From: Bigelowiella natans CCMP2755 | Taxonomy: Eukaryota; Protista; Cercozoa | Direction: 5' to 3' | Length of the DNA stretch: 64,000 bases | Assembly: GCA_000320545.1 (NCBI GenBank) | Contig: ADNK01003348.1 | Coordinates: 1-64,000, forward strand | Shown here: positions 22,133-58,480 of the stretch, piece by piece | Layout: every line of letters starts with the position of its first letter | Position numbering within the stretch: the first letter of the stretch is position 1 | Notes under the pieces: model-generated | What the model saw: only the letters and a program-made list of their open reading frames with translations | What the model was told of the DNA's origin: nothing | Database searches by the model: none | Made by a program: the position numbers and the translations under genes

Positions 22133-22895
22133 CATTTCAAGAATATAGTTGTTCAGGCATGAAACAGAACAACCCACGATATCTTTAGGAATAGTACACT
22201 TTAGTTTCTTCTTTTTGATTTGGAAGACACTGTGGTTAGGTATAGATATTCATATCCACAAAAAAGAAGGGATATATCGTTATAAATATATAAATAAATA
22301 AATATATATATATATATATATTTAGACTCATCAGTAAAATTTTAACTTAAATGAACAGCTGGTAAAGATGAAGAGCAGAAAGCAAAACCGTCGCGAGGTA
22401 TTAATTTGAATATATTAAGCTAATGCAGAGATATTGTGCGCAGTAGAACAGCCTTATTTTTAAATATCAGGCCAGAGATTAAAAGATCTGCTCCTTGGAA
22501 GCTTAAAAACAGAAAAGTAAGATTTTCTACGTTGGCATGATTACCCATTTGTCTTGATTGTTCATTTCGATTATCTTGACACCAAATTTCGGTAGTGATG
22601 CTTTGGATGATTCGGAGTGAGGGGAGATGAAGTAGCTTTGAACCAAAATGGCATATCACTAAATGATGCAAATATCCCTTTGAAATTGTTTGTGCTAAGA
22701 TATCTGCGGCCAGGTTCATAATCAGTGGATTAACTACTAGTTCGTGCATTTCCATGCGCACTAACTGTGTTCCATGCCACACAGCAACGCTGCTTAGCGT
22801 GCTTGTAGTTTAATTAACTTTGATCTACAATGAACTATGGTTATTTGGGCTGCTATTTTCCAAAAGTGGGGACGAAAAGTGGGTTAGATGAAGTA

Positions 22896-25800
22896 GTTGT
22901 GCAGGGTGCTGACAAGTCCTTGCAACGAGTGTTGTTGAGGCTCTGCTGCGTGCAAATGCCTGTCTCCCATGTGGTTCTGGCGCATGTAGTTTTGATCAAC
23001 GCTTTCTTCATTGTTCATTGTTCATTCATTGTGCATTCACATGCACAGCAGCCGTGCGGACGATGCACACGCATCAGATTGCATCGATCGCTACGATCCC
23101 TCACTGGCTAGCAAGCGATGCAATTGTGCAAATGACGTCCATGCACATGACGCTAGCCATGGTGGTCAATGATTGGAGCGCATCCAATGGATCAGCCACC
23201 AACGATGCAGCAATGGTGCTTCAGCTCACAATTGTGCACCTCCTCCACTGCCATGCACAGCAGACAATTGCAAACACACAACCCGCCAGTCATGCATGAG
23301 AACAATGGTGATGCACCACACTTCCAAAGTGCAACAAGACACTTGCAATGAACAGTGAACAATGAATGAACAAAGCATTGATCAAATCCACATGCGCCAG
23401 AACCACATGGCAGACAGGCGCACACGTGCAGCAGCGCCTCAACAAAAATCATTGCGAGGACTTGTCAGCAACCTGTTGGTGGTGAGTGGTGACACAACTA
23501 GCTGACAGCCTGCGTCCAAGGAAGCCAAAGATGACAGGTCAAGGCCAGATGAACCATCTGTCAATCATTGGTGTGGTCAGAATGTGACTAGGTTCTGACT
23601 GAAACCTGCACAGAGAAGCATCAGGAGTGGAAGCTAGGAGCATTCCGACGGGAAAAAACCAGCTTGGCGAACAGCAGCAAAATCATTGAGCAGGACAATG
23701 GTTCGACAGAAAGCCCCATCGATTTCTTTGTCAGTCGAAGGTGCACCAGATCTGGCCTCCAAGGCAATGAACAATGAACAATGATGAAAAACCACACTCC
23801 CAAAACACTTCATGACGTTTGCAACGTGCGGAACGCTGTGTTGGCTCACGCATGAAGTGAAACAAAAAGGAACCAAGAATGGCATTTTGGCCACTCCTCC
23901 GTTCCTAGTTTCATTGTCTTTTGTGCCCAATCTTTGCCAACTTCAGGACCACGCATCCCTGAATCCTGCCGTGATGGTTTGCTCACACTTGGAGATGACC
24001 AAGCAAGAGCACCACACCGCTACGAACCCCAAGCGAACAATCCCATGGACCACACCTTCATGGTCCGCTTCGCACCCACCACAACATCCCCGGCTTTTGC
24101 GGAGACATTGCCCTCGCTGGAAGGCAAGAAGATGGAGGAGGATGCATTCTTCCCACCCAGTCCACTTGGACAACGAGCTTCGCAATGACCACAATGTCCC
24201 CCGGCTTTTGCAGAGACAAAGCTCCCATCATTGCAACCAGAAGCACAAGCTTCACGCCAACCACAACGTCCCCGGCCCGACGGAGACATTGCCTGGAGGG
24301 CACAAAGTTTGAGGAGGGCACCTTCATCCTGACAGGATTCATCCGGGATGAATCTCAGTGCAGACACAGATCCGAAAATCCTTCACTTGGCAGCCAATTC
24401 GCCGATGGCCTGCCCCACCGGTGAACAGGAATGTGATGCACAGGGAAGAGGGGAAAAGCAGCCACCCTCGCAACCGAAAAATCCCCCGCCCATTGCCACT
24501 TCGGCGAATGCAACTTTGAACCTTGAACACAGATCCAAACATCCTTCATCTGGCCACCGAGTCACCGATGGCTGGGCCGACAAGTCTGTCTGTCCCATCG
24601 GTGAACAGGAATGTGGTTCAGGGATGGGAGGAAAAGCCACCCTTGTGACCGAAACCCCCCCGCCCATTGCCGCATCGCGCGCCAATTGGTCGGGTCGTCC
24701 GAAGGGGCACCCAGTGAGAATGGCAAGAACGGCAAGACTGAGCTTTTCACGTGAGGGCACAGCCGAAAAAGCACTCAAAGTGATGACATTGTCATTGGGA
24801 ACAATGAACAATGACATGGGAGACAGGCGTTTGCAAGCAGCAGAGCCTCAACAACACTCGTTGCAAGGACTTGTCAGCACCCTGTTGGTGATCAATGGCT
24901 CTGATTGCAACCAAATCGTGGAAACACGTTGCAATTGCTGCAACTGGGCCTGCAAAGTGTGCAGCCGTCAATCAGTCCGTTGGAATGGAGTCAATCAGCA
25001 AGAACAGCTGCCTCGAACTTGATTCTCAAAGGTGCCATTTCATGTGGCTTTCCCCAAAGCGCACATTGTCACAATGCATCGATTTTTTCATGTCAGACAT
25101 TGCTTCTCCCTCCGACTTTGCAAACGGTGAAGGTCAGTTTTTCCACCGGGATGCCATGGGCAAGGGGAGGTGTGCAACACGTCCGGTGCATCCACTTGGG
25201 AACCTGTTCGAGAAGCAAGTTGCTCATTCTGATTGAGTCTTTGTTGTCATGTGCGGTCCACACCTCCGCATTTCACTTTGGACATCGTGGGGAAAGCCAC
25301 AAGGAGACGATTCAGATTGGATGCAGTTGAACCTGATCAACAACCTCGAAGTCGTCAGTGATGCAAAAAAAACTGTTGCGAACTTGATTCAGTTTGGTTT
25401 TGGTCTGATCTGAGCCCTCACCAAAGCTCAGATCAGACAGAGTGGAGTTTTCAGTCCACGCATTTCCCATGGCTGAGAGGAAATGCGGAAAGTTTTTCGG
25501 GAGTGAAAACTGTTTGGGACGAATCTGTTCGAGTCAGCAATTCAATCGATCAAAGGCTTCATCCAGGAAGAATCTTCAGGTGCATGTCACACTTCGAACT
25601 TGATTCAATTTGGTTCCAGTTTGACCTGGGCTCTCCCCAAAGCTCGGACCAGACAGAGTGTGGTTTTCAGTCCACGCCTTTCCTTTGGACTTTGTGCGAT
25701 CGGCGGTTGTCATTTTTGAGTTTGTGATCGAAACACTGTGAACAACAGAAAGCGCGCAAAGTTTGTTCGGGAGTGAAAACTGCTCAGGATGAATCTGTTC

Positions 25801-26051
25801 AAGTCAGACATGCAGTCGAGTGAAGTCTTCATCCGGGAAGAATCCACAATGCAGATCCAAACATCCTTTGTTTGGCAACCAAGTCACCGGTGGCTGGGGC
25901 GACACGTCTGTCTGTCCCACCGGCAAACTGGAATGTGGTTCAGGGATGGGAGGAAAAGCCACCCTCGTGACTCAAAACCCCCCCGCCCATCACCGCATCG
26001 CGCGCCAACAGGGTGCAACTCGAGAGAAACAATGAAACAATGATGAAGAAC
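22896..26051. mobile_element. Block of degenerate nested non-autonomous DNA-transposon-like repeats, extremely TpA-depleted
   Basis: Inverted repeats beginning CAGGGTGCTGACAAG (22902-23030 vs 23347-23475, and 22902-22971 vs 24814-24884). Direct repeats of ~155 bp (24531-24685 vs 25853-26008, partial third copy ~24400-24500) and ~25379-25537 vs ~25595-25807. No recognisable transposase. Confidence 0.65.
22902..23475. mobile_element. MITE-like element with ~130 bp imperfect terminal inverted repeats
   Basis: The reverse complement of 22902-23030 aligns to 23347-23475. CAGG termini resemble hAT ends, but no clear target-site duplication was seen. Confidence 0.5.
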
Positions 26052-26123
26052 TACATTTCCAAAATGTGAGAGGGTCACTCGAGTTTTTTCAAGGAACAAT
26101 GAGTTACACAACTGCAAACATCC

Positions 26124-26307
26124 TAGATCTAACGTTATTTTTGTTGTCTTAGATCTATTACACCATTCGAAAATTAAAAAAAAAAATACTTTTAGATCTA
26201 ATGATATCATTATTAACAAAAATAGGGCCCTAGATCTAATGTGTACATTTTTTTAATGTGCATTGTGAAATTTTAACATGGCGTTCTTTCTTTTTTTACT
26301 AGATCTA
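26124..26307. repeat. Cluster of five TAGATCTA palindromic octamers
   Basis: TAGATCTA at 26124, 26150, 26193, 26231 and 26300. Confidence 0.8.
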
Positions 26308-26898
26308 GTACCGAGAGAGCGGTGTCGTTAAAAGAAGTCCGCCGCCGGCCGCTCGTATTTTTTTCTCGAGTATTTTTTATCGTAATGGGTCGTCATGGTC
26401 ACTATGAACCCTAAAATAAATGGCATTTATTATAAACGACAACTAACGAACCGTTCTAGTAACAGCTGTGATTAAGAACTAATGGGTCGGCCTGTAATGG
26501 TAGCAAGACCTTCAACACCTCCCTGTCGCTATTCTGCAGCATTCAATGGCCTCACGTCCCCCCCCCCCCCCCCTCTCTCTTGCCCCTGTCCTTCTCCTAA
26601 TCCTTCCTTGTTTCTCTACAGTCTCTATCAAACTCGCCATTTACAGATAAAGGAGGTGATAATAATTAATTATTGTTGTTTTTTTGGGGGGGGAGATTAG
26701 CTTGTTAATTTATGTTCTTAGTCACTTCTTTTTCCTAACTTGTTTTCTTGTTGTCCTTGCTCCACCCTCCTCGCTAACCCTCCTCTATGAGAGACAGATA
26801 GTGGTTACAACAAAAAAGACATTTATGTATCCATGCTCATATCGTATTTAAATGCCATTCCGTTTGCGCCAGGTAGGTAAGTAGACTAGGCCTATAGG

Positions 26899-27030
26899 AT
26901 GAGGATCGCTCCCCTCTTCCTTCGCGTGCCCTCCTTCATCATGCTCCTGCTACTTCCTCAGCTTGTGGTACTTACAAAAGAATTTATCCCATCCTCTTTC
27001 CTCTCCTCCGCCTTCTTAAAGAATATTATA

Positions 27031-27067
<37 letters not shown>

Positions 27068-30000
27068 CAGGTAGGGTTGGGGGGATGGGGCGTGGTACAA
27101 GCAGTGAGCTTGGGCCGCGTGCGTATGCCTGTTTTTTGTATCACAATCCAACCAAGTGAGCTTAGCCGCGGTTCATCATGTGTGTGTATAGTGTATGTTA
27201 GTTTGTGCATGTGTGTGCACGTGAGTGTGTGCGTGTGCATTGGGAACACAAGAGGGATCACATTTATTAAATTCCAGCCATCGGATAGCCATATTTATGA
27301 TACACTTCTATTCAAAAATTTTTCTTTTGGAGACATGCTAACATCCTCGGTCTCGACTTTAACCACACCTCTCAACTGCCCTCAACCTATATCTATACAC
27401 TATGAAAAGTCCCCTACGACCCTGTTAAACGGCGCGTCGTCGTACCTTCTCAGTGAAAGCTACTCAGGGAATAACAAGTATGTGACGAGCGCGGTGGCAC
27501 GGGACGGGCGGATCTTCGCCGCTCCTTATGATGCATCGAAAGTGCTGGCGATCGACCCATCACGGAACGTCTCCTACCAGCTCAGCGAGAGCTACTCAGG
27601 GGTTGTCAAATACCAGACGAGCGCGGTGGCCTCTGACGGGAGGATCTTCGCCGCTCCTAGCAGTGCACTGAACGTGTTGGTGATCGACCCATCGCGGAAC
27701 GTCTCCTACCAGCTCAGCGAGAACTACTCAGGAAATACGAAATACCGAACGAGCGCGGTGGCCCCCGACGGGCGGATCTTCGCCGCTCCTTATTCTGCAT
27801 CGAAAGTGCTAGTGATCGATCCATCACGGAACGTCTCCTACCAGCTCAACGAGAGCTACTCAGGGGATGCCAACTACAGGGCGAGCGTGGTGGCGCGGGA
27901 CGGGCGGATCTTCGCCGCTCCTAGCAGTGCACTGAACGTGCTGGTGATCGACCCATCGCGGAACGTCTCCTACCAGCTCAGCGAGGATTACGGCTCGGGG
28001 ACTTTCAAATACTGGACGAGCGCGGTGGCCTCTGACGGGCGGATCTTCGCCGCTCCTTCCAATGCTCTGAAGGTGCTGGTGATCGACCCGCTGCGGAACG
28101 TCTCCTACCTGCTCAGCGAGGATTACGGATCGGCAACTTTCAAATATTACACGAGCGCAGTGGCACCCGATGGGCGGATCTTCGCCGCTCCTGCCAATGC
28201 ACCGTACGTGCTGGTGATCGACCCATCGCGGAACGTCTCCTACCAGCTCAGCGAGAGCTACTCAGGGTTTAGCAAATACTGGACGAGCGCGGTGGCCCCG
28301 GACGGGCGGATCTTCGTCGTTCCTCATATTAACCCGAAGGTGCTGGTGATCGACCCGCTGCGGAACGTCTCCTACCAGCTCAGCGAGGATTACGGCTTCG
28401 GATCTAGCAAATACTTTGCGAGCGCAGTGGCACCAGATGGGCGGATATTCGCCGCTCCTAATTGGGCCTCAGAAGTTCTGGTGGTCTATCCTGGGTCGTA
28501 CAGATACAGAACGCAGTCGCCGACCACCATGCCAACACATGTAAGAATAGTTGTTTATGATTCGTCTTGAAGGCTTGCGTGGCGTTATATCATCGAGTTT
28601 CTTATTTTTGTTCCTATCTCGCCTTTTATTTCCTCACTTGAGATTGGAACGTATGCGTCTGTGAAATTTCCCCTGTCCCATAAAAAGTGAGATTCATGCG
28701 ACCGTGAAAACGGGGGGGAGGGGGATGAGGCGAGTGGTAAAATGATATTTCTTTCTGTGCAGTTTCTTCTCGCCATAAATAATGTAAATTATGCACATTG
28801 CAATTCGTTGTTTCTTTTTTTCGGTGTGTGTAGGCGCCATCTACTGCCCCTACCGCTGCTCCGAGCTGCAGTCCAAGCGCAAATCCTACATCAGATCCTA
28901 CGCTAATTCCTACTTTAACTCCTACTGCAAACCCTACTTTTAGCCCAAGTCTTTCTCCATCGCTCAATCCAAGCATTTTTATTAGTGCCTCTCCGAGTGC
29001 AAGCCCGAGTTGCAATCCCAGCGCAAATCCTACATTAGATCCTACATTAATTCCTACTTTAACTCCTACTTCAACTCCTACTTTTAACCCAAGTCTTTCT
29101 CCATCGCTCAATCCAAGCATTTTTATTAGTGCCTCTCCGAGTGCAAGCCCGAGTTGCAATCCCAGCGCAAATCCTACATTAGATCCTACATTAATTCCTA
29201 CTTTAACTCCTACTTCAACTCCTACTTTTAACCCAAGTCTTTCTCCATCGCTCAATCCAAGCATTTTTATTAGTGCCTCTCCGAGTGCAAGCCCGAGCTG
29301 CAATCCCAGCGCAAATCCTACATTAGATCCTACATTATTTCCTACTTTAACTCCTACTTCAACTCCCACTTTTAACCCAAGTCTTTCTCCGAGTGCGACA
29401 CCTACCAAGTCTCCATTGCACGCTCCGACCTGTGCTCCGTCTTTGAGCCCCACGCCAATGCCTTCTTCCGAGCCCTCTTCTTGCCCTTCATCTGCTCCGT
29501 CCGTTGGTATTGATACCATCACACGCTCTCTCGAGGAGTCATGTCTAAGGATTTACGGGCCAAGCACCTTCTACGTTAGAGATGGTTTGACAGTGACGTT
29601 TTCTCTCACATGTGCGTCGCTTCGTAGCAGCGCGGCAGGGCCGCGACTATTCAGCTGGAGCTACCGTTCGCTGAATCGGTCCTCCCCTTCTCTTGTGCAT
29701 GTGCAAGATCGCCAGAGTTCATGGGCTGGAGACATCTTACAGCTCGCTGAGTCAGATATAGATTCAATATTCCGAAATGATAGTGATGTTTCAGCTGATA
29801 TGGAAGTTCAGGCGTGCGTTCGCCTCAACGTTTCGAGTCTACACTCAGAAGAACTCCGAATCTGTTCGGTGACTAACATCACCGCTCAGCGCAACCTTGC
29901 CCCTACCATCGCTTTTGAGGGCTTTGGCACTTTTGTTTCGTCTGGGAGAGAAGTCGTACTAGCTGCAAGGATCAACCACCACATAAAGTCCCCCAACATG

Positions 30001-31086
30001 AGCTTATCCTTAGATGATATCGCATCCTTTTCTTACCGGTGGACTATGCGGCGGCTTACGAATAGTCAAACTGCCCGCTCAGGCGCAGATATCAATCTCA
30101 TTGACATACCTTCATCCCGGTCGATTGCCCTTAGAATCCCAAAGTACATGTTGGAACCACAAGAAAGCTACAGAATCAGTTTCGAGGCGAACATGACCAA
30201 GGTGTACGGGATGCGTCGTGGCTTAGTGTCATTCGCGGTAATAAAGGACGGAGTATTAATACTAGTTTCTAAAGCTATGTAGGCGTCAATTATGTATGTG
30301 TGTGTGTGTGTGTGCGCGTTAGTTGTACCTTTAGTGTTATACAGCGCGTGGGTATGGGAATTTGTATGAAAGCAGTCGATTCGTTCTAATTTGAAAATGT
30401 GCCATTAGGACGTGCTAAGCACAATCGCCCGTGGCTTTGTAGCAGGCATCAACGGTCTCTCTAATTTCCAGAATATTCCAGCTGATGTAGGGCTTAATTT
30501 AGATGGGAGTTCGGCGTGTTATGACCCTGAGGACGCACCCAATAGCACTTGGATATTCCAGTGGAGCTGTATCAACCAGACGGAGGCGCATCAGATATGT
30601 TCGGGCGCTCGATTGACCCGTAACGGCGCTGTCTACGCCCTTCCATCCGAACGACTAGCGCATTCAACAATTCTGAACCTCACGCTAAACTTCTCTGTGG
30701 TTTCTAACGGAGGGACGCTGCGGCGTTCCAGCCTGTTCCATACGACTTTCCATGTCATTCCGAAGGGTTCTCCGTCTCTATTTATCACAGGAAGATCCTT
30801 CATTGTCTCTCGGGGGGGGACCCTCTCCCTAACAGCGAATTTTGATGGGGGCAATAGTACCGACACTGATTCATTAACTGAATATCGCTGGGAAATGGAG
30901 AGGAACTCGTCTTCGCCATTCATCATTGATGCCAATACGGCCTCAATCGTCTTGCCAGGGTCCCAATTAGTAGACGCTGCACGGCCACAGCAGAAGGAGG
31001 TGGCTATCACTGCTATCGCGATCCAGGGTTCTGAAAGGGCTCGGTCTACGGTGTGTACATAGCATGAACTGTTAAAACACAGACAG

Positions 31087-31123
<37 letters not shown>

Positions 31124-31133
31124 ACCCATATTA

Positions 31134-31180
<47 letters not shown>

Positions 31181-31530
31181 CATATATATAACTTGATATA
31201 TTGGAATATTACCATTTGACCATGGCTACTGAATATGATTCACTTCTACTGAACACTTTACATCTCTTTATGGGACATATCTAAGTGTGACTCCGATGAT
31301 GTCTCATTGTTACAGGTCACGGTCAGGATTATCGATGTTCTCGAAATCGGATCAATTCGAATTAGCCCCCTAGAGGGAGTTGCTTACACGTCTGAATTCA
31401 AAGCATCGGCTTCTGTGATCATCTTAGATTTGGACTACGCACCGACGCTTACGTCTTTCTCATTCTACTCTCAAAATAGCAGCCAGTCTAACCCGAAAGT
31501 TCTATGTACGTTTTCTTTGTCCCAAGGTCT

Positions 31531-31581
<51 letters not shown>

Positions 31582-32222
31582 CCGCGCTTTCGTGCTATCT
31601 CGCTTTCTTGTCTTTTTACACCCCCCCTTCTGATTTTCATACATCCAAACATGAGAAAAGGCTCTAAGTGAGAATATTCTCTTTCTACTTTCCCTCACTC
31701 TTTGTCCCCCCCTCCCCCATTCTCCCCCCCCTCCCTCGTTTTCTACACTTGTAGAGTGTACATTCTCTTTACCGGCGGGAAACCATAGTATTGTTGTCAA
31801 AGTCAAAGACAGCATAGGCGGCGTTTCGGAGGCGATATTTGGCCCTATCCAAGTTCATGCTGCAGCATTTCCAGTTTCCGATACGCAGAGCGCAGAATGC
31901 GTCCAAGCATCCCAGGCAGTGTCCACCCTCCGCAAGATGACCGAGGGCAGTTTTCCATCCATTCGTGATGATAGCCTAGTTACCGGAGACAGGCCAGCGT
32001 CGGTGTGTAGGAGCCTCAATCTGACGCTCAATGTACTTAACAGCCTCGAAGAGATAAGCGGCGTGTTGAATCTCGCTCGGATGGCTTTGGAGATTATAGA
32101 TTCCATTCCGGTTGACCACACTCTGCTTTCGCAATGTGTGGACTATGCCGGAGCATTGGGATCGAATACAGCAACATCTGGAGGATCAAAAGGGTAATAA
32201 CTTCAATTGCAATCTGATATAA

Positions 32223-32264
<42 letters not shown>

Positions 32265-32750
32265 TTAAATGTATTTGTAGTGTGTACGGCTCTGACACGT
32301 GAAATAAAATCTGAATAATCTGAACGGCCTTTTGTCTTTCGGGCTCTTTCTGATGAAAATCTGAGACGAATTCATCATTCCGCCTCAACTCTGACAAAGT
32401 TGATCTTTTCTGTTACATAGGTGCTCTAGCGATGCGCCCTTGTCTTTGCTTTCATCAGATCTATGGGACATCGTAAGCAGCTATGTGGAGAGACTTGCAT
32501 TGGTTACTGACATTGCAGCAGGAGAAGAGAGTCTCATGGTGGCTCAAGTTATCAGGGAATCGGTTGAAACTCAATCCTTTAAAGGTAGGGGATGAGAAAG
32601 ACGCAGTGGCGTCGCAACTAGCTGCATTATGCATGCGTGTAGACAAGCGAGCTCTACACAATTTCTCTCTGTCTTTCAGATACATAGCTGTTTTTTGTAT
32701 GGCGGCACCCACCTATCCACCTACCCACGCACGCAGAGTAATAGAGAAAG

Positions 32751-32792
<42 letters not shown>

Positions 32793-34007
32793 ACATGCGT
32801 AAAGAAGTGGGGATAACGGATAGAATCATTTGTGTTTCAAATTCAAAATAACAAAACACTCCTTGATACAATTGAAAGATGGAGTAAAGAACATCGTCCA
32901 AGTGAAGCACGTACTCGATGCAGTAGACTCAATCACAGCCAACGCAGAACCGTCAGAACTCGCAGCGGATCTAGGCAACACGCTTGCTGATTCGTACGGA
33001 GCGATTTTAATGAAGTCCGGCTCAGCATCAAATCATCCCGCGTCATTGGAATTAACATCTTGCTCTATCGAGGACCAGTTGGTAAGTTCCATGGACTCTC
33101 TCCTTCACAAGGCGGGGAAAACTTCCCCCCCCCAGTCTAATGCCGGTGAAATTCAGTTCAGAACATCCAGTTTTAATGCGACCGCTGGTAGCATCTTTGC
33201 CGATGAAGTTAGTAGTTCCAGTGCATCTTCCGGGCTACGCGTCTCTATTTCCCCGACAACGGCGAAGTCCTCCATAAGTAGATATGAGCGACCGACGAAT
33301 ATCCTTACTCTTCTACAACTATCGGCTGAATTAATCGCCCAATGCCGACAGCGCCAGATACAGCAACAGGCGCTAGCGAATACCATCAATGCAGTGTTGG
33401 CATCTGATGTAGCCTCGGTCAACTTCTACAAATCCTCTGGCGCTCGACTGCTGTCTCGTGGTTCTAGCGACCACGGTCCGCGCGCAAACATTACCATAGC
33501 TCTTCGCTCAGAGGTCGCGACGACGGACTGCGGAGTTCGAAGAGTTTGCAGCTTTTGGGACGCCTCTCTGCGGGTATGGAGGCAAGATGGATGCGCATAC
33601 AACGGAACAGACCTGGATGGACTGCACACCTGCGCCTGCAACCACCTCACTGAGTTCGCAGTACTGGCGGACCGAAGGAGTTGTTCCCCCGAGGAGAATG
33701 AGGTCAAACTAGGGTACTGGGGGCTGGTAGGCTTGCTTCTAGTCATTGCATTAGCGGCCTTTGTACAGCTAGCCAGACTTGCCCAAACTGGTTTCAAGAA
33801 GAAGAACGTAGCCTGGACCCATTTCTTTGTCCTAGCTGTGGCTATTACCAGAGCTATCAGCGTATTGATGGTAAGTGAAAGCCGAAGAGTGATGCGCTCG
33901 CTTGTTAACAGTATCATGTACCGATATGCTGGATGATTCGATTTTTAACAGGCAAAGCATGCATTGATTCCTCCCTTCTCACTTCCTGTATCTCAGCCCC
34001 CTCCCCT

Positions 34008-36760: not shown

Positions 36761-38888
<2,128 letters not shown>

Positions 38889-46086: not shown

Positions 46087-46750
46087 TAATGCTAATATTG
46101 GCCATGACTTCGATTTAGATTGAAGGGCAGGTTCGAAAATGAAGGAGGCCCACCTAGGTGTGGCCCGTTTGTCTAGCATGTAGCATTGATTTATTGCGTA
46201 TGGCAGTATATTCTACGTTACGTCATTACATGTTTACATTTCCGTATTATTTGTGACTCATATTTTGCATGCAAAGCAACAGTACTGTACCCTGACTCCT
46301 TCCATGCAAAGCGATGTTACGCTCGCCATACTAACTAGCTAGTATAGCTGATATACTGATGTCGCGCACACATATAGCGCACAGCCCATTGTTCATTGAA
46401 ATGATTTTTGAAGCGACTAGCTGCACATGCATCTAGCTAGCTAGATATATGTCAAATATATAGCTTGGCTTATATAGATGTAAAGCACACCACGATCTGG
46501 TCAGTAGGAGATGTGTGTTGAACAATTGGGAACTAGTCGTAGACATATGCGCACGCACTTATGCAATGATAATTTTATGACCACATTAGCTAGTTAGTCT
46601 ATGGCTTATCGCAAAATGATGTTTAAATACCCATCCATACACAAGCATGGTAATGGAACAAGCAATAAGCTAGTAAGGCTCTAACTTATCGAAGCAGCAC
46701 GGCAATCTATATCTACATAGTCATCTCTCCGCTATGATTTTTCATGTTAT

Positions 46751-54609: not shown

Positions 54610-55135
54610 TATATGTACTAATATATGCATGAATAACTAGGCATCAATGGCGTGACGAAGATCCTCTCCGAGCAGGGCGCTTCTATCAAAGAAATCTTCC
54701 ACGAGCGCGCGTGGCTGCAGTCCAATGTGTACAACGTGCAGATTAAGTGCGTGATCGAGGTCACAGACCGAGAGCATGGGATCAGGGTATTAGCGCACGC
54801 TCCGCCAATTGCTCGTGGTGTTTAAAGCATCGGCTGCTAGATGATGATGATGATATGATGATGATGATGATGGTAGTGGCGGTGTTGCTGGCGATGATAA
54901 CGATTGTAACAGCGATGACGACGACGAGATCATAGATCATAACACAGCGATGCGGTACCGTATTAGACTGATGTTTTTCCTCCGAAAACGTCCCGAAAAC
55001 ATCTAGGTCCACCAAGAGCTGATAAATCAAGGCTACCCAACCCTAATGATGAACGAAAGCGAGGCGGGGAGCGAGTTCTCAGCACAAAGCCAGCAGAAAC
55101 TAGGGCAAATCCGGCCACAGGGGTTACGGATATAA
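50799..55135 (+). CDS. ilvA: Threonine/serine dehydratase (PLP, fold type II) with C-terminal ACT domain and a mitochondrial-type presequence
   Basis: MLLRRSLFRGPLPLLKRAR.. presequence; ESGSFK|ERGA (PLP lysine); AASAGNHA; GYDHPDIIAGAGT; VPVGGAGLIAG; GVEP; TLADGLAVP; VVEGGGATGLAA; LCGGNID; VSDRPGG ACT domain; stop TAA at 55133-55135. Confidence 0.92.
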
Positions 55136-56175
55136 AGCAATAAATGCTTCACATGCATTGCGCGTGCTATGTACTGAAGGAAATCATGCAGTATTATATA
55201 TTAGTATATCGCATGCACGAGAATGTAGCAAGCAGATGCAGTGACGAGGCGAGTGCAGTTTTCGTGGTGAGTAACTCATGTGCATTTGTTTTTCTACCAT
55301 GTTCTAACGCTTGGCGATTAAAATTTCAATTATTCCATGTGTAAGTGCTAAATTACTCTTATTTCGTCATACGCACATGGAGCCATCTAGCCATACTAGC
55401 ATAATGAGCGTCATAATGCGGTGATGAAGTAGCGCATTCTATGCTGGCAATGCTAGAATGCTAGAATGTGCGGCTCAAGCATTACAAGCTGAACCACATC
55501 TGCGATGCATCTATGCTACATGCTAGCATATAAGCATGTGTACACGTACTAGCGTAGGTGCGCACATGCTGAACAACAATGGGTACAGCTATGCATGTTA
55601 TAATCGATCTACACTAATACTTGTGTACAGTGTGCATACCAACATGTGTGCGTATATGTGTTTATGTAATAATAATAGCATGTTTTAATAAAGGGCTATT
55701 TTAGGATGACCATGATTTTAATAAAAGATGCAATCATTCACATTTAGGGCGTTCCGACGACATTAGGATCTAGCGATATTTGTGCACTGGCAGCTAGAGT
55801 CGCATGAAATTGTGGACAGAGGCATGACGATGCGCCCAAATCTAGAAATACCCAGCTGTAGAGCTGGGACAAAGCAAGGCTTGAAGGGCTATGCTAGGTA
55901 AGTATATGTAAACACCATATGCGAAGCTAGGTGTGTGCGTTCGATACATGCATCCACTGCTGCGCGCCACTCCAACATTATCATTCCCGCAAATTTGCGG
56001 TGCAACGTCTGGACGCGCGTCGATGGGATGGGCTATTAAGTTAACAATACTAATAACCGAAATGTAAATAGAAGTAACAAAGAATGAATACGATCTAGAA
56101 TTGCTGATGAAGTATGATCTTTCTCATCAACTCCAATACCGATATGGTAATATCCTAAATTTGTACGCTGGTAGC

Positions 56176-57203: not shown

Positions 57204-57424
57204 CGCGCCACATCGAGTGGCGATTTGAGGTGGTGGGAGGAGGGGGAAAGAGTGGATATGTAATCTGTAAGAACGAGATGCTTTTTCACCCTGCGACAAC
57301 GTGAACAGAAAATAGTTTTTTGGTTGTTTTGCAGGACAATTCTGCATGGGATTTCGTGTTTTGTTTTGTCGTAACTGTTGGATGTGGCCTTGCTGCCGGA
57401 AACAAATTCATTCTTCAAGAATCG

Positions 57425-58480
57425 ACATGACACGCCCCTCTAGCCTTGTCCACCTGCTTGAAAGCTTGTCAGCAGTGCTTGCAGCACACCTTGTTGGTGT
57501 GCCGAATGGCATGAACACGAACTAGACGAATCTTGAATCTTGAATCTTAAATCTTGAATGACACTGCAAGTGTCTTGCAACACTTTGGAAGTGTGGTTTT
57601 GCTTCATCATTGTTCATTGTTCATTGTTCATTGAATGAAGTCCCTCATTCCAACATTGCTAGGTCGAATGGTGCACGTTGTCCAGTTGTCTCTGCGCGTG
57701 CACGCGTGGAACAACGCGGTGAGTGGGCAGATGAGCCACTTTTGCAGTTCGAGAGTTGCTGATTGATCTGGCACAACCATGATGAAGTGATCATCAATCA
57801 GTGGTTGTTCAGTGGAAATCATCGGAGAAGCTTGTTTTCGGAGAATTGAGTCGCAGCAGGGCACTTGAAGGCTCAGTTTTGGAGTTGTTGCCACGCTTTC
57901 AGCTGGATTCCTGACACCACCATCTTGTTGGAGTCCAATCACACCTGTGAAATTGCTTCCTTCGTTCACTCATCCAAATCAACTAGCCAATGATGATCAC
58001 ACATGTGGGTTGCATGCACATGCATCTCGCCTCACAAATCTCTGGACTTGACGACGTGCAAAAGTGAAGTGATCTTTTGTCTTGCCCAGTTGTGTGTGCT
58101 TGATCGAAACGTCATTGCATGAGCCTGGTCTCCCCCTAATCTTGCTAGCTTGCACCGATTGCACACAATGCATCGCTAGATCGCATCTAGACATCGTGTG
58201 TATATGTGCGCACACGCTGCATCTGCTAGCTAGCTAGGCCCGAGCAGCATGATGTGATTTGTCTTGATTGTGCGTTTCATCATCCGCTGAGCCAAACTGA
58301 AGAACGTGCACGTAGTCTTGCTGACTTTCATCAGCGTCCCCACGCACGCATGCATCGCAATGAATTCGTGTGTGCGTAAAACATGCGTGATCACACTGCA
58401 GACACATGCAAGCAAGTGTCTAGATGCACCTGTCTGTGACTAGACTGCATGCATGCTTCTCGTTTCATCGTTGAAGACCG
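57425..58480. mobile_element. Second TpA-depleted repeat relic, related to the 23-26 kb block
   Basis: The reverse complement of 57562-57631 (AATGAACAATGAACAATGATGAAGCAAAACCACACTTCCAAAGTG..CAAGACACTTGCA) matches ~23315-23350 and ~23766-23805. Residual TpA is mostly CTAG. Confidence 0.6.

Follow-up and report, generated by a model that had tools for sequence, protein, structure and literature searches.

Surviving TpA steps in a probably hypermutated island of Bigelowiella natans form a flank-dependent ladder with CTAG slowest to be lost

Fungal RIP fills repeat domains with transitions that affect both strands and are specific for a dinucleotide, and it spreads into adjoining unique DNA; its chemistry is C>T, and it creates TpA. 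Among A>G editors, ADAR prefers UAG. The fungal Tad2-Tad3-Ame1 complex also prefers UAG (bioRxiv 10.1101/2023.10.18.562923), and amphioxus ADAT2, when it acts on DNA, favours GAA and the loops of hairpins (PMC10354150). In B. natans, TpA>TpG/CpA hypermutation has been reported de novo (Mettrop et al., bioRxiv 10.64898/2026.01.13.699255): of 231 new mutations detected in two regions of integrated virus, all but one were A>G or T>C and hit TpA, the rate being about 6e-7 to 6.9e-7 per TpA site per generation, around 1000 times the genome rate. The same preprint counts 124 TpA-poor clusters and names an ADAT2 homologue as candidate enzyme. Its main text gives no flank rule, the words "flank", "context", "TAG" and "trinucleotide" occurring zero times there (the supplements may differ), and no flank rule for the TpA>TpG/CpA process was found elsewhere among the literature matches listed.

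We analysed a window of 64 kb, meaning here the whole stretch of 64,000 nucleotides. It is intron-rich eukaryotic DNA whose ALG2-like protein is closest to chlorarachniophytes (51-54%) and whose eIF6 is 98.4% identical to that of Bigelowiella longifila and 90-94% to those of Norrisiella, Chlorarachnion and Amorphochlora. Bigelowiella comprises two named species, which makes B. natans the likely host; an exact-match search with two proteins of the window gave no hit. The window also holds a propeller-like frame of 132-bp tandem repeats (27020-28570) and, after it, a long protein of Ser/Pro/Thr repeats that carries a GPS motif and resembles adhesion GPCRs or polycystins (28834-33936). Two TpA-depleted islands and their parts are as follows.

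22896-26051, no strand: TpA-depleted island 1, nested high-copy repeat fragments and spacer (9 TA against about 186 expected)
22902-23031, plus strand: repeat module A, retroposon-like 3' end with a (TTCATTG)n tail (TTCATTA in contig L001), transcribed (alignment, RNA reads)
23105-23245, no strand: single-copy spacer between repeats, TA-depleted like the repeats (depth and dinucleotide counts)
23346-23528, minus strand: module A, second copy, with upstream part (alignment)
23765-23840, minus strand: 3' end of repeat module B, with more copies at 23300-23353, 26036-26067 and 57561-57626
24023-26051, no strand: stretch without any TA, CTAG included, with internal duplications (TA count)
24814-24899, minus strand: module A, third copy (alignment)
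57400-58480, no strand: TpA-depleted island 2 (18 TA, 12 of them CTAG; rho TA 0.25, CA+TG 1.72)

The initial annotation had dealt with 22980-24025, which is the first third of island 1; the island continues to 26051. Relative to expectation, island 1 has TpA at 0.05, TG at 1.63, CA at 1.54 and CG at 0.63, the low CpG being confined to ACG, GCG and TCG while CCG/CGG are not reduced. A further region, 38100-38500, passes a loose TA-poor filter and was dropped since it contains CA microsatellites.

The island is sharply bounded by copy number. We placed contigs of three DNA runs (X1, X7, X10) on 22400-26600 and summed their depths. In run X1 the summed depth is 67 before 22823, 20757-51750 over 22823-23104, 96 over 23105-23245, hundreds to thousands beyond, and 30 after 26207, with the edges of island 1 falling in bins 22823-22963 and 25925-26065. 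Island 1 is thus pieced together from high-copy fragments that are separated by single-copy spacer. Just outside it, 26120-26310 carries six near-copies of the TAGATCTA motif with TA intact, at near single-copy depth. TA depletion coincides with the high-copy DNA and also covers the single-copy spacer: 23030-23290 holds 3 TA, with rho of 0.22 for TA, 1.93 for CA and 2.26 for TG. TA is as scarce in the spacer as in the repeats, so the target of the process is a domain and not paired copies.

Both modules are repeated within the window and end in the (TTCATTG)n tail. RNA reads of run X21 match the orientation of the modules, for example at 22902-23031 and 23765-24091, and in ten of them a poly(A) run directly follows the tail at 26026 on the minus strand. 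Somewhere in the genome the module family is therefore transcribed and polyadenylated in spite of its loss of TA, and the tail together with the poly(A) reads suggests that the modules are retroposon 3' ends. No Pfam match was found in the nine frames inside or adjoining island 1, and no Rfam match in the island. Pattern scans gave no match in viral contigs or in contigs of prokaryote genomes, and a metagenome scan returned two loci, contigs L001 and L002; as far as tested, the island does not appear to be viral.

These features resemble the system of the preprint in several respects: the genus and probably the species are the same, the change is on two strands, the islands are sharply bounded, TpA-poor and TG/CA-rich, and single-copy DNA is affected too. 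The preprint defines its clusters by TpA rho of at most 0.43 and CpA+TpG rho of at least 1.52 in three successive 1-kb windows (10.64898/2026.01.13.699255). Over 23001-26000, the 1-kb windows have TpA rho of 0.11, 0.02 and 0.00, all three below that limit, and CA+TG rho of 1.80, 1.47 and 1.42, one of three above the cut-off and all raised over their neighbours (1.18, 0.91). As in the preprint, TA is replaced by TG at some sites and by CA at others, with either strand affected, in alignments to L001 and L002 and in the shares among genome copies. The targets differ: the hot regions of the preprint are integrated viruses, whereas island 1 consists of spacer and of retroposon-like fragments that are high-copy, tailed and polyadenylated, with no Pfam, Rfam or viral-contig match. 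Loss of TA is also near-complete in island 1 (rho 0.05, against 0.45 in the preprint). We infer that the activity described in the preprint made island 1. With fungal RIP the island shares dense, two-strand, dinucleotide-specific change in repeats and neighbouring unique DNA, but here TpA is removed, to 0.05 of expectation, the opposite chemistry.

At 22980-24025, nine TA steps survive where base composition predicts 65.4; a tenth stands at the far edge of the island.

22986-22989, plus strand: GTAG survivor in module A, TA ancestral (TA in L001; 55% of depth keeps TA; the internal copy near 23390 is GTGG)
23091-23094, plus strand: CTAC survivor (tetramer count)
23108-23111, plus strand: CTAG survivor in single-copy spacer (depth 90-96 in 23105-23245)
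23153-23156, plus strand: CTAG survivor in single-copy spacer (contig depth)
23498-23501, plus strand: CTAG survivor, common to L002:124 and so ancestral (alignment; a TTAG four bases off in L002 is TCAG here)
23588-23591, plus strand: CTAG survivor in a low-copy stretch (contig depth)
23634-23637, plus strand: CTAG survivor in a low-copy stretch (contig depth)
23905-23908, plus strand: CTAG survivor (tetramer count)
24020-24023, plus strand: CTAC survivor (tetramer count)
26051-26054, plus strand: CTAC survivor at the island edge, in module B, common to L002:74 (alignment)

The nine positions and tetramers of the initial annotation (six CTAG, two CTAC, one GTAG) were every one exact on recount, and all nine do read TAG on at least one strand, as it had observed (background share 39%, P = 2e-4). 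The background here is the remainder of the 64-kb window with simple repeats masked. CTAG makes up 169 of its 3022 TA (5.6%), which gives P = 2e-6 for at least six CTAG in nine, and the most CTAG in any of the 3481 runs of nine successive TA in the background is four, short of the six seen here. Island 2, which the annotation did not include, has CTAG at five of the six TA in its core (57550-58200, P = 3e-6) and at 12 of 18 overall (57400-58480).

Since unmutated host spacers can themselves be CTAG-rich, we added them as a second background. Against the richest of these, in which 23 of 165 TA are CTAG, the pooled islands with 18 CTAG among 27 survivors remain strongly enriched (Fisher P = 3e-8). 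The spacers in question (46090-46720 and 55130-56150) are rich in CTAG, GCTAGC and (GCTA)n, possibly from old cytosine decay or as a binding motif. They lend some weight to the idea that the pattern is an accident of ancestry or selection, arising from CTAG-rich starting DNA or from master elements obliged to keep CTAG: CTAG accounts for 14-18% of TA in some host spacers, and repeat copies do inherit the states of their masters, as a GTAC site with product shares of 75% and 6% illustrates. This origin is nevertheless very unlikely, given that the enrichment holds even against the CTAG-richest spacers and is replicated in island 2, that two of the CTAG survivors belong to single-copy DNA, which has no master, and that the survivors differ in their flanks. 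The initial annotation had read the survivors as an enzyme-like context preference and not a compositional accident; dependence on the flanks is borne out, and its enzyme-like character is plausible.

Sorted by context, survivors observed and expected are 18 and 6.4 for CTAG, 4 and 15.8 for CTAC/GTAG, and 5 and 90.2 for the other eight classes; against host spacers the ratios are 0.58, 0.25 and 0-0.12. CTAA/TTAG and CTAT/ATAG together left one survivor against 23.0 expected (CTAA/TTAG alone, one against 9.4), and unprotected sites left four against 67.2. TTAA retains one of 6.7 expected, ATAA/TTAT none of 18.1 and GTAA/TTAC one of 11.6, so that TAA contexts are lost and CTAG is the spared member of YTAR. 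The annotation had predicted an order of CTAG far above CTAH/DTAG, and these far above the rest. In the window's islands against background CTAG does exceed all else, but the middle class reduces to CTAC/GTAG, the single class to which all half-protected survivors of island 1 belong; CTAH/DTAG as a whole does not differ significantly from the unprotected class (Fisher P 0.14-0.30).

We also considered duplex stability alone as the source of the order and rejected it: by nearest-neighbour values GTAC stacks more strongly than CTAG, and yet GTAC is not spared.

Several flank rules could yield such an order. With the host-spacer background, log-likelihoods are -16.8 for a two-sided rule in which a preceding C and a following G each slow the change, -15.0 for slowing of TAG or CTA, and -16.0 for a model in which CTAG alone is special; with the window background the two-sided rule is clearly worse (-28.6 against -21.2). 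Fits to the survivors did not separate the flank models. Because TAG and CTA are one motif on two strands, survivors cannot tell which side protects; the products of the change can.

Contigs L001 and L002 are short metagenome contigs in which the modules are less mutated; their module copies share 76-94% identity with those of the window. L001:1-440 is itself partly TA-depleted (rho TA 0.32, CA 1.52, TG 1.32), and six of its nine TA read TAG on a strand; L002:331-1617, adjoining the repeat modules, is an open frame with methyltransferase-domain matches. At most aligned sites, tail included, TA in L001 or L002 is TG or CA in the window copies; comparison with these less-mutated copies demonstrates conversion of T:A to C:G at TpA on either strand. 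The three alignable TA of the window (22987, 23499, 26052) are all TA in a relative as well, the other six of the nine survivors being without an alignable relative, and these three are old sites, not back mutations. Among the 40 rows listed of the 464 in the comparison of island-1 copies, TA is restored in two, as CTAG and CTAC. At these two sites within the island, the tetramer is lost from the window and present in other copies.

24076-24079, plus strand: CCAC in the window, CTAC in 53-58% of DNA depth (contig depth shares)
24944-24947, plus strand: CTGG in the window, CTAG in 86-100% of DNA depth (contig depth shares)

The age of the survivors bears on whether CTAG was remade after the mutator had acted. 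Deamination of methylated C in CAG/CTG would regenerate CTAG from CCAG/CTGG, and GTAG/CTAC from GCAG/CTGC, and would give the same ladder with a bias of products towards TGG. Cytosine decay does occur, as the CpG depletion of the island indicates, and partly depleted stretches carry CTAG at 2.8 times the background density of the window. Against host spacers, however, that excess disappears (ratio 0.58), and the three alignable survivors are TA in the copy of a relative as well as in 55-70% or more of the depth across the genome. The GC>AT rate given in the preprint (3.4e-10) is also about 2000-fold below its TpA rate (6.9e-7; 10.64898/2026.01.13.699255). We therefore give such regeneration very little credence.

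To follow individual contexts through the genome copies, we placed DNA runs X1 and X7 on L002:28-285 and took shares of contig depth, with 40 of 42 variant rows listed. At GTAC (L002:40) T>C accounts for 75/75% of depth in X1/X7, A>G for 6/7%, and TA is kept in 18/18%; at TTAC (L002:59) the shares are 47/43%, 29/28% and 25/29%, computed after removal of the roughly 60% of depth bearing other letters. At GTAG (L002:74), by contrast, T>C is 16/14%, A>G 18/15%, and TA is kept in 66/71%. GTAG thus keeps TA 3-4 times as often as GTAC or TTAC in the same element, in copies hundreds-fold deeper. CTAG at L002:124 has A>G in 17/18%, with no T>C among the variants listed and at low depth. The site matching 22987 has TA in 55/55% and G as the next base in 85/83%, with no GCAG among the variants listed, so that at least 28-30% of depth must be GTGG there. 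In the module of that site, L002 positions 191 and 196 have no TA among the variants listed, a loss that may be inherited from a master copy. All these shares come from few sites and are not independent events; the numbers from X1, X7 and X10 are almost the same, so the three may come from one strain, and placement at 80% identity on a reference that carries TA is biased towards copies keeping it. The palindromic GTAC site, lopsided at 75% against 6%, indicates that inheritance from masters or wider context shapes the shares. Sites at which copies differ by a double swap of CA and TG (7 pairs in the 40 rows listed) were excluded from the flank rule because an ancestral CG yields the identical pattern.

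These shares speak to the side of protection. The initial annotation had proposed the target 5'-TA-H-3', with CTAG doubly and CTAC/GTAG half protected. The flank ladder holds, but strict strand-wise sparing of TAG does not: at L002:74 the A of TAG is converted about as often (18%/15%) as the A opposite (16%/14%), at least 28-30% of depth at the 22987 match is GTGG, and CTAG has decayed to CTGG at two sites, L002:124 (17-18%) and window position 24944. At three GTAG/CTAC sites the A of TAG is changed no less often than the A facing it, and both adenines of GTAG/CTAC are converted (18%, 16%), each less than at GTAC or TTAC. The A of GTAA is converted more than the A of TTAC (47% against 29%). 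There is no shortage of products that end in G: GTGG occurs at 13.0 per kb in the islands against 6.4 in background and TTGG at 12.7 against 6.0, with CTGC at 10.6 against 9.5, although CpG decay (CG 0.63) also yields TG and CA and blurs such product counts. The strict TA-H rule is too strong.

A softer form of it, in which the mutator senses nothing but the base following TA and TAG is slowed about six-fold, fits the survivors best when host spacers serve as background (factor 0.16) and ties for the best fit under the window background. Its variant with chemistry on the T side, through a modified T or a polymerase placing G opposite, equivalent to protection of the A by a C before the T, predicts GTGG products and would make these agree with the sparing of TAG; for this mirror kind speak the dominance of GTAG>GTGG at 22987 and 24077 and an excess of GTGG larger than that of CTGC. 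We nonetheless think it unlikely that only one side is read: the two products at L002:74 are equally common in DNA (16%, 18%), TA is kept there in two thirds of depth, too much for one fully active strand, and the direction varies by site, TTAG having become TCAG in the 23505 copy and RNA reads at L002:74 giving T>C in 32/100 and A>G in 11/96. Nor are CTAA/TTAG and CTAT/ATAG spared, as a one-sided rule would have them.

The retention of TA at two GTAG sites across genome copies also bears on shielding, in which there would be no flank preference and a bound protein or cytosine mark would cover the CTAG palindrome and partly cover CTAC/GTAG. That model of CTAG as the only special class fits the survivor counts as well as the others do, and the high share of CTAG in host spacers that are unmutated (23 of 165 TA) could be due to a binding motif; alone, however, it leaves the two GTAG sites unexplained. 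No methylation data for Bigelowiella were found in the literature among the matches listed, and the available text of a study of chlorarachniophyte giant viruses (10.1101/2025.11.19.688996) mentions no CTAG motif. We regard shielding as improbable.

Nor is CTAG immune. Past 24022, 2029 bases contain no TA at all, where 5.9 CTAG would be expected were it immune; the probability of finding none is about 0.003 before allowing for internal duplications, which shorten the effective length. This loss of CTAG, together with site L002:74, rules out immunity: CTAG is slow. The best reading is a ladder of rates in which CTAG is slowest, followed by CTAC/GTAG, with both strands slowed.

We suggest, with somewhat better than even confidence, that island 1 was made by a B. 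natans TpA mutator that deaminates A in DNA and is slowed by a preceding C and by a following G, each on its own. The cell would mark an intergenic domain rich in retroposon-like fragments, and the mutator would turn T:A at TpA into C:G on either strand, most likely by deaminating A to inosine, which would be fixed as G at replication. Its rate would depend on both neighbours, being lowered by a C ahead of the T and also by a G behind the A, so that the preferred target would be approximately D-TA-H. CTAG, carrying both slowing bases on both strands, would go last, CTAC/GTAG next to last, and the rest fast; in the longest-exposed part of the island CTAG would be gone too. We infer the two-sided rule from a handful of sites, while the ladder itself is present in the counts. 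Against the rule, the sparing that it predicts for CTAA/TTAG and CTAT/ATAG is absent (1 against 23.0), a behaviour predicted by neither the one-sided nor the two-sided rule, and both the RNA reads at L002:74 and the TTAG>TCAG change in the 23505 copy lean towards a rule that spares TAG.

This specificity can be set beside that of known adenine deaminases. Like ADAT2/ADAT3 (Tad2-Tad3) and ADAR, the activity changes A to G with T or U before the A. Unlike them, it shows no preference for UAG, since TAG sites survive best here and are among the slowest contexts; and the changes appear in runs of DNA, go in both directions and extend to single-copy spacer, which does not fit RNA-only editing or a one-strand retro-copy. 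Neither the UAG of Tad2-Tad3-Ame1 nor the GAA of amphioxus ADAT2 matches, which weakens ADAT2 as candidate without excluding it.

The process itself is known; the ladder with CTAG last appears to be new. What it adds is specificity, drawn from few sites, and it identifies as targets of the mutator both piles of retroposon-like fragments and the unique DNA between them. The ladder is the cheapest handle on the enzyme: a candidate must spare CTAG, which tRNA and RNA deaminases preferring UAG are not expected to do. It could also date islands, by whether CTAG is left or gone. The Bigelowiella mutator may be a natural editor of adenine in double-stranded DNA with a dyad-symmetric D-TA-H site that avoids CTAG, and may not be the proposed ADAT2/3 pair; if this is true, a TpA editor would serve genome defence.
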